Sequence record: NC_047830.1
DNA: 53,092 bases
Source: Escherichia phage ST32
Reading direction: 5' to 3' (one strand)
Of the stretch, positions 5,683 to 16,003 are shown piece by piece (the first letter of the stretch is position 1; every line of letters begins with the position of its first letter). Both the position numbers and the translations under genes were made by a program. Under the pieces are notes generated by a model, which saw only the letters and a list, made by a program, of their open reading frames with translations, was not told where the DNA came from and ran no database searches.

Positions 5683-5943
5683 ATGGCGACTAAGACCGGA
5701 ATGATGATTGTCCCAAGCCGTAATAACTCTTTAAGCGGCTTTACACCATATAAAATCTATGAAGTAATTTCTGGCACTGGTGAAGCAAACCTGTCAGAAG
5801 TTGCTTTGAAGTTGGGCCGTATGGTCCACTCCGAAATCTCCTGTAACGTAGTTGATGACGAAGGTAAAATCCGTTTTGTAACAATGGATTTCTTTCGTGA
5901 ATTTAACCTCAAATCTGAATTGGGAGTTCTGTACCATGAATGA
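5683..5943 (+). CDS. hypothetical protein
   Basis: ATG 5683 preceded by GGGAG; track start is TTG 5671. Confidence 0.5.
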   Translation: MATKTGMMIVPSRNNSLSGFTPYKIYEVISGTGEANLSEVALKLGRMVHSEISCNVVDDEGKIRFVTMDFFREFNLKSELGVLYHE

Positions 5944-12454: not shown

Positions 12455-13091
12455 GAAACAACATCAGATAATAACTTTGTAACTCGGTAGACCGTTGCGG
12501 CCGCATCGTGCGAGAATGTTCAACTCATTCTACAAAGTTATTTTCGATGGAATGTTTCCATCATATACATTTATCTTTTAACATAGGCCAAAAGGGCCAG
12601 AATACTTATTCGCAGAAAAGCTATTCACTTGTTATAGGCGATGTATTGGGATGAATTGGAACTAAATAAGCAAGCTGTTAGGGCTGAATAATTAGAGGGT
12701 TATGCCTCATGCTTATGTTAGTCATTCGAAAATAGGTTTGTGCCACAAGCTGCTGGTGCTCTGAGGAAGTCGGACAAACAGGGCTTAGAGTGGCATAATC
12801 CGCACAAAACCGCGCCACCAGCTATGCCAAAGCAGGTGGATTGGGTGAATGTATTGGGAAGGGTTGCAAAGCCTCTGTGACACGCCTGAGCCGCAAGGCG
12901 ACGACACTCATGTGATTAGCGTATCGCACCCTAACGGGAGTAACCCTTCACCAATGCAGTTATCCAGAATTGACACAAACGGTAGGCAGCGGCCCGATTT
13001 TCGGCCTTCCTGCGCTACCCTGTGGCCTGTTCCTGGGCCAAAAGATGAGAAGAGAAGTCACAAACACTGAATCGAAAATTGGAGAGTTCCT

Positions 13092-15008: not shown

Positions 15009-15084
15009 GTTGCCGATGGCAAACTTGAGAGACTAAGCTAAATCGATCTGGCGTGCACTGGAAGTTTTCCGGTGCTGCCTTGAA

Positions 15085-15107
15085 CCCACTCTGAAAGGAA
15101 GAGTGGG
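15085..15107 (+). terminator. perfect 8-bp hairpin CCCACTCT-GAAAGGA-AGAGTGGG after the abundant gene, no U-tract
   Basis: inverted repeat read from sequence; lacks the T-run of a canonical intrinsic terminator. Confidence 0.35.
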
Positions 15108-15908
15108 CTTCAATGAGCATTCTTGTGATTAGAGCTGGGAGGTAGGCCGATGCCCAAGCTCATGGCCCAGACGAGAGTGTTCATTGAAGTAGTTTTCTGA
15201 GTCTTACGACGGGCCTAAACTGCCTGGAGTTATTGCGACTGTTTTATTCATTTAAAATAAATGCAAATGATTCTGAAATGCGAGTTGCGGCTTAATTAAA
15301 TTTAAGTCCTCTCCGTGGTCTTCCAATCCCACGTAACCAAATTTGGCGCATTGTGGCTTCGAGATGTGATTAATAAATCGGAGCAATAATTAATTTGTAT
15401 TCTGCGATGCAATGCAGGCTTAAGTCCCTCAGTGCGCGTGGGGATGTGACAGAGTACAAACTTAATTATGCAGTTGGATATTTCCGGAGGACGGACGAGC
15501 ACACTGGAATGTCTTCAATTGGTTTAGTGTGAGAAGCTATGCCAATGTGAAACGTAACTCCTTGAGGAAGTGCTCCTCTGGATTTCCCTCCACACAGGAA
15601 TCTCAAGCCTGTGGCAGTGACTTCGAAGCTGCACTGCGTAACCTAATTCACCCTAAAGTGAGTTGCCCTGAGCATGGAAATAAACTGCTCATAACCGATG
15701 GTATCTACAAAGGTAGATTAAATCAGGTTGCCTGTTGGTACTTGGGTTCAACACCTGCTTGCACTCGCAAAGTAGTGCCTTGTACCTGAGATGAAGTGAG
15801 TCGGGACCATCAATCCCACGTTATGTCAAAACACAGTAGGCGACTCACGGATTCTACAAGCCTCGCAGTTCGGGAAAACCTGCGTTATCAAAACCCCCCC
15901 TATTCTTT

Positions 15909-16003
15909 GGACGAGTAGCTCAGAAGGTTTGCATTGTGCTCAGTCAGGTAGAGCAATCTGTTCGACAGATGTGTCGTTGGTTCGAATCCAACCTCGTCCG
16001 CCA
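15909..16003 (+). tRNA. tRNA-like gene, non-canonical (anticodon possibly UCG, Arg); may be a pseudo-tRNA
   Basis: 7-bp acceptor stem GGACGAG/CTCGTCC, T-arm GTTGG-TTCGAAT-CCAAC, encoded CCA; but a roughly 20-nt insertion (AGAAGGTTTGCATTGTGCTC) sits in the D-arm and the anticodon arm is ambiguous. Confidence 0.55.

Follow-up and report, generated by a model that had tools for sequence, protein, structure and literature searches.

A selected, tRNA-shaped RNA gene of Escherichia phage ST32 that probably does not decode

Escherichia phage ST32 (Chaseviridae) carries a 95-nt gene that has been listed as a tRNA-Arg (PMC6266442). A comparison of its homologues indicates that it is most likely neither a tRNA-Arg nor a decaying pseudogene, and that it encodes a selected, tRNA-shaped RNA without a conserved anticodon. 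The gene lies on the plus strand at positions 15909-16003 of sequence record NC_047830.1, whose 53,092 nt constitute the window analysed here and provide all coordinates below unless another locus is named. The explanation that we favor, and to which we assign a probability of roughly 0.6, is that this is a functional, non-decoding tRNA-like RNA gene, apparently derived from a tRNA-Phe-type gene, whose product would be excised by host enzymes and may act in trans. The narrower proposition, that the gene specifies a selected, non-decoding tRNA-like RNA of whatever role, appears more probable still.

The element has the order GGACGAG-TA-GCTC-[29 nt]-GAGC-A-ATCTG-TTCGA-CAGAT-GTGTC-GTTGG-TTCGAAT-CCAAC-CTCGTCC-G-CCA. 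Its match to the Rfam tRNA model RF00005 spans positions 15909-16000 and scores 43.8 bits, for a gathering score of 29 (E=4e-6 for the whole window of 53 kb), and a scan of the whole window at E≤0.5 returned no Rfam match besides this one. A first-pass annotation of this DNA, made from the letters alone, had described intact acceptor and T arms, a first GCTC separated from GAGC by 29 nt, and a duplicated GCTCAG (15918-15923 and 15938-15943), all of which are correct. The 7-bp acceptor stem, 5-bp T stem and 7-nt T loop are present, and the stems pair in 100% of cells in an alignment of 14 homologous sequences. Also present are the bases of the tertiary core, namely U8, A14, G15-C48, G18G19, A21, U54-U55-C56 and A58, which are located at 15916, 15922-27, 15950, 15975 and 15981-85 and are invariant in relatives, as well as A9, A26 and G46.

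Two regions of the element depart from the canonical tRNA architecture. The D-loop, which canonically comprises about 7-11 nt, is 29 nt long in ST32, 30 nt in relatives with a second version of the insert, and 24 nt in SA91KD; the insertion of about 20 nt that had been proposed for this region is borne out by the RF00005 alignment, which contains a 23-nt D-loop insertion and deletes two anticodon-loop positions. In all homologues the third arm, which occupies the place of the anticodon arm, consists of a 5-bp stem capped by a 5-nt loop, compared with the 7-nt loop of canonical tRNAs. The covariance-model search placed the 5′ boundary where the first-pass annotation had set it and revealed no canonical fold with different boundaries, and ARAGORN reproduced the coordinates 15909-16003 with a call of type II tRNA-Leu(CAG). 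No tmRNA, Y-RNA or intron family of Rfam matched the element, with RF00005 alone being returned even at E≤10. The element resides within a 240-nt intergenic gap of a co-directional transcription unit, and the Shine-Dalgarno sequence GGAG (16020-23) of the next open reading frame (ORF) begins 17 nt downstream. This part of the genome is 99% identical to that of phiEcoM-GJ1 (GJ1; Chaseviridae, Carltongylesvirus).

The locus was compared among 28 distinct genomes or contigs, which together contain 14 distinct element sequences, with the third-codon positions of an adjacent ORF of 46 amino acids serving as a neutral proxy. Variable columns amount to 2/65 in the tRNA body, 12/22 in the D-loop insert and 4/5 in the third-arm loop, compared with 25/46 among the third-codon positions. 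The body differs from the third-codon positions (Fisher p=3e-10), and the loop is indistinguishable from these positions (p=0.37) and distinct from the body (p=8e-5); these values count columns rather than independent events, in a shallow family that recombines frequently. The pattern indicates strong purifying selection on the tRNA body and thereby speaks against a decaying pseudogene. By the same measure, the loop and the insert evolve at about the neutral rate, with loop length fixed at 5 nt, and a loop that changes freely among sister phages while retaining this length argues against a decoder. The stem of the third arm is invariant (0/10), an outcome whose expectation under the neutral proxy is, by our own arithmetic, about 4e-4.

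In an alignment of the element together with its flanks, the conserved stretch runs exactly from G1 to C72, and both the 12-nt leader before it and the trailer after it are almost wholly variable. Variation occurs in only five places, which are the D-loop insert, the 5-nt loop, T-loop position 60, the pair G5-C68 (G5.U68 in some sequences), and the discriminator, which is A or G in relatives. The insert ranges from 15 to 21 nt and exists in two versions that differ at 7 positions; TH24 has an additional C>T change, and SA91KD lacks 6 nt. Internal variation is thus seen only where an L-shaped RNA would be expected to tolerate change. The encoded CCA that had been noted for ST32 is indeed present (16001-16003) and is not a conserved feature, as CCA, CCC or CTC follows the discriminator in relatives. 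Of the three natures that the first-pass annotation had left possible, the comparison with related phages favors a tRNA-like element with another role, and disfavors both a decaying pseudogene, because the body is selected, and a decoding tRNA, because the loop drifts.

The third-arm loop reads TTCGA in most genomes, TTAGG in JL1 and Bp7, TAAGA in PYps16N, TH26 and FXie, and TCGAA in TH29. The last of these is the exact reverse complement of TTCGA, which suggests a hairpin-mediated inversion. Two folds had been proposed for this arm. The form with a 5-bp stem and a 5-nt loop stands, whereas the alternative with a 4-bp stem and a 7-nt loop presenting UCG, from which an arginine specificity had been read, is 3.2 kcal/mol less favorable and opens a G-C pair. 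In addition, the first and last loop bases are able to pair in all four variants, so that the minimum free energy (MFE) structure has a 6-bp stem and a triloop. If the 7-nt register were nevertheless used, the four variants would present UCG, UAG, AAG and CGA, corresponding to Arg, Leu, Leu and Ser, on one unchanged body that has neither a long variable arm nor A20 and whose discriminator does not follow the supposed identity. The identity set of the E. coli arginyl-tRNA synthetase (ArgRS) comprises A20, C35 and U/G36. The nucleotide after G18G19 is U in both copies of the D-loop sequence (15928 and 15949), leaving the element without A20, and C35 is not conserved, the four variants having C, A, A or G at the center of the loop. 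Viewed against the identity rules of ArgRS and of the leucyl and seryl enzymes, these features yield no coherent adaptor, and the arginine assignment is not upheld. Codon usage does not discriminate in this matter, because CGA, at 6.9 per 1000 in ST32 ORFs compared with about 3.6 per 1000 in E. coli, is only modestly enriched, and AGA and AGG are similarly raised.

Two pairings of the D region are compatible with all sequences and have similar energies. In Model B, the first GCTC pairs with GAGC, and the insert forms a small hairpin that exhibits one compensatory change (A-U to U-A or the reverse). In Model A, the second GCTY pairs with GAGC, which creates a canonical D arm preceded by a hairpin. 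We prefer Model B because it retains the canonical spacing of U8, A9, A14, G15 and G18G19 with the expansion placed after G19, because it coincides with the Rfam global alignment, and because it alone would tolerate the 6-nt deletion of SA91KD. A search of IMG/VR for the insert motif indicated that it is confined to this lineage, the 13 other matches being unrelated sequence.

With the insert removed, the element is identical at 58/75 positions to a tRNA-Phe(GAA) from a large phage in IMG/VR, with a 2-nt gap in the anticodon loop. The nearest GenBank matches outside the genus span only nt 26-95 and include the tRNA-Phe of Klebsiella phage NDO71. The element appears to derive from a phage tRNA of the tRNA-Phe type. 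No close counterpart was found among E. coli chromosomal tRNAs, the best match being 77% identity to plasmid tRNA-Asn genes (E=0.6). A canonical ancestor, sharing the third-arm stem and having a loop of 3-9 nt, was sought in two collections. IMG/VR yielded only the four known relatives and none with a 7-nt loop, and GTDB genomes gave six chance matches, none of them in a tRNA. Scans of IMG/VR and metagenomes with a pattern for the T arm and acceptor recovered mostly unrelated tRNA-Asn, tRNA-Phe and tRNA-Tyr genes that share the T arm, and added two new members of the family.

Although the gene is already known, its nature is unsettled, and near-identical homologues have been annotated or called as tRNA-Arg of 95 nt, tRNA-Arg of 71 nt, tRNA-Leu(CAG), tRNA-Ser(GCU), or nothing. 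The GJ1 record gives a tRNA-Arg with the remark 'may contain an intron', and the records of Ecp_YSF and Pel53 contain a 71-nt tRNA-Arg that starts inside the insert and is devoid of the true 5′ acceptor strand. Several records place spurious small ORFs over the element, and Mangalitsa was published with "0 tRNAs" (PMC6753284). ARAGORN, applied across the homologues, returns Leu-CAG for those with the version-1 insert, nothing for version 2, and Ser-GCU for SA91KD. We found no description of the anomalies of this element, and no chasevirus transcriptome, in the literature searched. With respect to the same literature, four points appear to be new: the selection pattern, the evidence against a tRNA-Arg, the set of elements across the family, and the conserved upstream block described below. 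The Pel53 record (PP952070.1, 'Staphylococcus phage Pel53', labelled Staphylococcus hyicus) is about 92% identical to the coliphage locus, tRNA-like gene included, and its host label looks doubtful.

The genomic position of the element has the behavior of an accessory cassette slot, as judged from its contents in related genomes. PYps3T, 4T and 16T are missing exactly the element (see also PMC8762354). In BSBP01 (L054 560-625) and Shigella phage 2KOFFS (L055 1-65), the slot is occupied by a long imperfect hairpin followed by ATTTTT (MFE -25 kcal/mol, z=-3.9), which might be a terminator or a small RNA gene of another kind. TH23 (L020 610-679) and, identically, TH28 and TH33 contain a second tRNA-like gene directly downstream of the first. 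This second element scores 37.6 bits with the Rfam tRNA model, has either a 6-nt loop or, in the MFE fold, a hairpin of 6 bp and 4 nt (ACACUC-GACG-GGGUGU) as its third arm, and is reported by ARAGORN as 'tRNA-???' with a 2-base anticodon.

The 5′ side of the slot is marked by a hairpin block, CAAGCCTCGCAGTT-loop-CTGCGTTATCAAAAC, which varies at 2/43 columns among the 28 genomes and occurs once in the genome. The block extends across chasevirus genera and is found once in 7/8 of the chasevirus loci examined, with loops of 8-20 nt, and is absent from the short L096 contig. A tRNA-like gene begins 12-13 nt past the block in ST32 and in three more distant loci (L100, L101 and L102), and these genes are of different types. 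The block may represent a promoter, a leader or a recombination boundary of the RNA-cassette slot; the ICTV profile describes the promoters of Chaseviridae as unidentified. A coding function was considered and rejected, as the alignment shows that different lineages would read the block in different frames. Inspection of the alignment also revealed that pairing between the block and the D-loop insert is not conserved between the two insert versions.

Similar elements, with canonical acceptor and T arms and aberrant third arms, are encountered in other chaseviruses, and ARAGORN misses nearly all of them. The first 50 kb of the 56.6-kb record of Erwinia phage Y2 (Loessnervirus) contain no annotated tRNAs and none detected by ARAGORN, and harbor three tRNA-like candidates. 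One is a 115-nt cloverleaf with the same T arm as ST32, one comprises 100 nt with a perfect acceptor stem, T arm and ACCA around an odd middle, and one scores 35.2 bits with the Rfam tRNA model and has a third arm consisting only of GGC-UGAAAU-GCU. Berlingot and another genome from IMG/VR have different subsets of the Y2 elements plus a further one. An element shared by Y2 and Berlingot (E3) exhibits compensatory changes in its acceptor, D and T stems, and a third-arm hairpin also changes in compensatory fashion between these phages (CACUC-GACG-GAGUG and GUCUC-GACG-GAGAC), a GACG hairpin akin to the third arm of the second element of TH23. The presence of these tandem Loessnervirus elements differs between isolates, and the two Erwinia records contain no tRNA annotation. 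The Y2 ORFs annotated as gp43 and gp44 overlap tRNA-like elements and are probably spurious.

In more distant chaseviruses, for which the primase gene served to anchor the loci, between one and four additional cloverleaf-like genes are present, with third arms that are long or are closed hairpins. In these loci (L096, L097 and L100-L102), ARAGORN recognizes only a tRNA-Cys(GCA), in two of them. Taken together with TH23, Y2 and Berlingot, this recurrence suggests that the ST32 element is one member of a wider and largely unannotated set of tRNA-shaped RNAs, which are apparently non-decoding. In L100 (2987-3093), an extended arm ends in a perfect CUGAAAC loop of the Phe type, and UGAAAU is retained in an Erwinia-phage element, which hints at common descent from a tRNA-Phe followed by changes in the length of the arm.

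The features described above are compatible with the following scheme. The element would be transcribed as part of a co-directional early or middle transcript, host RNase P would cut at G1 (15909), and 3′ trimming followed by CCA addition or repair would complete the RNA. RNase P, the 3′-processing nucleases and the CCA-adding enzyme recognize the acceptor stem, T arm and elbow of their substrates. Excision is proposed because these are among the parts that are conserved, and because conservation starts and stops at the ends that a mature tRNA would have. What is predicted to result is a stable, L-shaped RNA, about 92-95 nt long, that, lacking a fixed anticodon, would not serve as an adaptor for arginine or for any other fixed amino acid. 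Its role might be to mimic a tRNA in trans: the RNA would engage a host factor that recognizes the body of tRNAs, and could for instance titrate a defence nuclease directed at tRNAs or an enzyme of tRNA processing or modification. Excision would also cut the transcript just before the small ORF and the spanin genes. Given a non-decoding RNA, a trans-acting mimic is the role we tentatively place first, a purely cis function in processing or stability is a possibility we would put only slightly lower, and other roles account for the rest. A function in trans is favored by the conservation of the whole cloverleaf, by the tandem arrays, and by the accessory behavior of the locus in an early region; the locus lies near genes annotated for anti-restriction (GJ1 map) and superinfection immunity (Mangalitsa).

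A broader and more speculative extension, which we regard as unlikely in its full form, is that Chaseviridae deploy cassette-borne, tRNA-shaped decoy RNAs behind the hairpin block, and that these RNAs, matured by host tRNA enzymes, neutralise tRNA-directed immune nucleases or other tRNA-sensing factors. Under such a scheme the third arm and D-loop would have been shortened, lengthened or closed so that the RNAs are neither cleaved nor able to decode, and the fast turnover of cassettes would reflect an arms race. Several considerations weigh against the non-decoding, trans-acting RNA that we favor. A decoy for an anticodon nuclease would be expected to retain an anticodon-like loop, which the ST32 element does not. 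What we propose for the RNA product, including its expression, processing and aminoacylation, derives from sequence. Column counts overstate the number of independent events, given the shallowness of the family and its frequent recombination. Finally, U33 and a purine at 37 are common to all four variants in the register with a 4-bp stem and a 7-nt loop, and ST32 ORFs use CGA at about twice the E. coli frequency, so that a weak decoder with a shifting anticodon, improbable as we consider it, has some observations on its side.

Such a decoder would be a tRNA-Arg whose UCG reads CGA, in which G31-C39 opens on the synthetase or the ribosome to produce the 7-nt loop, and whose relatives have switched to UAG, AAG and CGA. 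Besides the points just given, the annotations based on tRNAscan specify Arg, and E. coli either uses the codons CGA, CUA and CUU rarely or serves them poorly. This reading requires an anticodon stem of 4 bp in place of the energetically preferred forms and an unusual G32/C38 pair, and it does not account for the missing A20 and the unconserved C35. It is also implausible that a single body, with no long variable arm and with a discriminator G in the 'AAG' variants, would be charged successively with Arg, Leu and Ser. A simple inversion within the hairpin accounts for the TCGAA variant, the loop shows the neutral rate of evolution, and codon usage cannot have shifted to match the anticodons among genomes that are about 90% identical. 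We deem still less probable a functionless, decaying tRNA pseudogene, whose likeness among phages would reflect recent horizontal spread. The 2-base deletion in the anticodon loop and the D-loop insertion resemble decay, and the element is absent from some genomes and patchily linked to different flanks. Recency, however, predicts uniform similarity, whereas the loop and the insert have diverged and the body has not (p=8e-5 and p=3e-10), and the homologous E3 element, in phages of another genus, keeps its fold through compensatory stem changes.

A purely cis-acting element is a more serious competitor than either of these, if still an unlikely one. By this account the tRNA shape serves only to attract RNase P and 3′ endonucleases, which would cut the long transcript where the early genes give way to the cassette of the small ORF and spanins, and the RNA set free would be without function. 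The position of the element in the intergenic gap, 17 nt before the Shine-Dalgarno sequence of the next ORF, and the inclusion of RNase P targets (acceptor stem, T arm and elbow) among its conserved parts are in agreement with this idea. The element is dispensable in PYps3T, and the hairpin and U-run of BSBP01 and 2KOFFS would be another way to form an RNA end; this substitution is open to two readings, one favoring a cis role and the other making the hairpin a small RNA gene of another kind. Cleavage, on the other hand, requires neither an invariant third-arm stem nor the compensatory third arms of the Erwinia phages, arrays of two to four adjacent tRNA-like elements with no intervening ORF are unneeded for punctuation, and the polymorphism in presence and in cassette content is that of an accessory rather than a housekeeping locus. 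Least probable of all, in our estimation, is a type II tRNA-Leu(CAG) in which ATCTG-NNNNN-CAGAT forms the long variable arm and the anticodon arm lies in the insert, or a tRNA with the 20-nt insert as an intron. ARAGORN does call Leu-CAG for the version-1 insert, the loop of a variable arm would be free to vary, and the GJ1 record mentions an intron. The Leu fold, however, needs a D stem of 2 bp, a linker of 5-6 nt where N26 would be, closure by an A.A mismatch, and a 5-nt spacer separating the variable arm from the T stem; moreover, ARAGORN finds nothing in version 2, its call for SA91KD is Ser-GCU, the deletion in that phage having removed the supposed CAG anticodon, and the Rfam model prefers a class I alignment. 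As for an intron, the SA91KD deletion takes out the would-be 3′ junction, no Rfam intron family matches, and the host is bacterial. Group I introns are about ten times longer than the insert, splicing at bulge-helix-bulge motifs is archaeal and eukaryal, and we know of no bacterial mechanism for splicing a 21-nt insert from a D-loop.

The RNA that we favor can be placed beside several known systems. With the tRNA genes of other phages (clusters of the T4/T5 type and the tRNA-Phe(GAA) of large phages), it shares the cloverleaf, the tertiary bases, the T arm, the D arm AGTCAGGTA and the variable loop GTGTC, and it differs in its 21-nt D-loop expansion, its 5-nt third-arm loop, and the lack of a conserved anticodon among orthologues. 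The vtRNAs/TMERs of murine gammaherpesvirus 68 are virus-encoded cloverleaves that are processed by the host tRNA machinery, do not act as adaptors, and occur as arrays of different copies. The likeness to the phage elements lies in the virus-encoded shape, the apparent lack of an adaptor function and the arrays, with processing of the phage RNA being only predicted; by contrast, the vtRNAs belong to a eukaryotic virus, have Pol III promoters and linked miRNA hairpins, and are not homologous to the phage element. The t-elements of plant mitochondria, mitochondrial tRNA punctuation and the mascRNA of MALAT1 provide examples of tRNA-like processing signals. As in these systems, the phage element presents a mimic of the acceptor and T arm with a degenerate bottom half in a long transcript, where cleavage by RNase P/Z would create mRNA ends. 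A conserved acceptor stem, T arm and elbow joined to a bottom half that is apparently non-decoding is found in ST32 and recurs in TH23, Y2, Berlingot and L096-L102. Unlike those signals, the phage element conserves the whole cloverleaf, third-arm stem included, and has relatives in tandem arrays, and its cleavage is only predicted.

Non-decoding mimics of the acceptor/T/D part are also known in the bacterial Y-RNA-like YrlA and in the tRNA-like domain of tmRNA, from which the ST32 element differs in lacking a match to any such Rfam family and in having no Ro60, SmpB-type or tag-reading-frame context that we could see. Phage tRNAs that are reported to counter tRNA-targeting host defences (PMC10264068, PMC11464382, PMC11555353) resemble the ST32 element as accessory and variable early-region genes of virulent phages whose variation is concentrated in the anticodon loop; they differ in that they are described as functional decoders that replace cleaved host tRNAs. 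An RNA that cannot decode, as we propose for ST32, would at best be a decoy against tRNA-targeting defences.

The tRNA-Arg label has been published for ST32, phiEcoM-GJ1 and other phages, and the gene has been reported absent from others. This label is probably wrong, which makes arguments for codon compensation that rest on it unsafe. If the proposed nature of the element is correct, it would belong to a class of small phage RNAs that has gone unstudied, in phages of a family that is being developed for biocontrol. A 53-kb virulent coliphage with natural deletion and substitution variants would then offer a tractable system for functions of the tRNA body beyond decoding, a timely subject in view of recent work on tRNA-targeting anti-phage defences. 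Coordinates of the features are collected in Table 1.

Table 1. Parts of the ST32 element (positions in the window) and related features at other loci (positions preceded by a locus label)
Feature	Position	Strand	Remarks
Whole tRNA-like gene, 95 nt	15909..16003	+	Rfam tRNA 43.8 bits; ARAGORN coordinates identical; ST32 paper PMC6266442
Upstream block CTACAAGCCTCGCAGTT-loop-CTGCGTTATCAAAACCC with hairpin CGCAG/CTGCG; 5′ boundary of variable RNA-cassette slot	15854..15896	+	28-genome alignment
C/T-rich leader, variable, mostly U at -1	15897..15908	+	Nearly all columns differ, indels included; conservation resumes at G1
Acceptor stem 5′ strand GGACGAG	15909..15915	+	7/7 pairs with 15993-15999; invariant in 14 distinct sequences
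U8 A9, D-stem 5′ strand GCTC (15918-21), A14 G15 A16 A17 G18 G19, canonically spaced	15916..15927	+	Copy chosen by Rfam global alignment; invariant
D-loop expansion after G19, 21 nt; holds second GCTCAG; small hairpins possible	15928..15948	+	12/22 alignment columns variable
U20 A21, D-stem 3′ strand GAGC (15951-54), A26	15949..15955	+	Invariant; partner 15918-21, alternatively 15938-41
Third ('anticodon') arm, 5-bp stem ATCTG/CAGAT, 5-nt loop TTCGA (15961-65)	15956..15970	+	Stem 0/10, loop 4/5 columns variable
Variable loop GTGTC (G44 U45 G46 U47 C48)	15971..15975	+	Invariant; same as loop in tRNA-Phe-type genes
T arm GTTGG-TTCGAAT-CCAAC	15976..15992	+	Sole variation at position 60, T/C
Acceptor 3′ strand CTCGTCC, discriminator G73 (16000), CCA (16001-16003)	15993..16003	+	C68 to U in some relatives, still a G.U pair
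Tandem tRNA-like candidates, Y2	L076 15767-15881, 17242-17343, 17349-17417		
Tandem tRNA-like elements, Berlingot	L091 208-305, 315-392, 398-466		
Tandem tRNA-like elements, IMG/VR genome	L092 1557-1651, 1662-1736		
Cloverleaf-like genes of distant chaseviruses, 70-110 nt, canonical acceptor and T arms	L100 2522-3275; L101 3391-3491; L102 3306-3389; L096 1439-1511		
Near-canonical tRNA-Cys(GCA)	L097 4467-4540; L102 4262-4335		Anticodon-stem mismatch; compensatory change between the two contigs
Hairpin block at other loci	L076 16736-16777; L092 1148-1189; L097 3107-3140; L100 2838-2871; L101 3345-3378; L102 3254-3292		

A number of minor observations concern the surroundings of the element and the sequences recovered in the searches. 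A 40-codon ORF at 15796-15918, which is gene 035 of Mangalitsa, crosses the upstream block and stops at a TAG within the acceptor stem; it is probably not a real gene, because indels in a C-run shift its frame among relatives. The segment of about 520 nt at 15009-15528 corresponds to the gap between gp29 and gp30 of the GJ1 record, where no gene is annotated, and the region around it is mosaic, since the equivalent in Mangalitsa holds the superinfection-immunity gene. The 5′ strand of the third arm includes ATCTGTT, a class II pause and termination motif of T7 RNA polymerase, and we considered and rejected a role for this motif: it is present at 2 sites on the plus strand and 6 on the minus strand, which is not significant, no U-run lies downstream of it, and relatives have ATCTGTA or ATCTGTC. 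Our finder for the top half of tRNAs also flags coding-region sites at 12475, 17115, 20393 and 29894 in the window, which we took to be chance matches. Unrelated IMG/VR contigs (L025 at about 125-240, L040 at about 5785-5900, L024, and L032/L041) combine the T arm GTTGG-TTCGAAT-CCAAC with an interval between D and T arms that is longer by tens of bases; their tRNA genes are not called by ARAGORN and may contain introns or be otherwise expanded.

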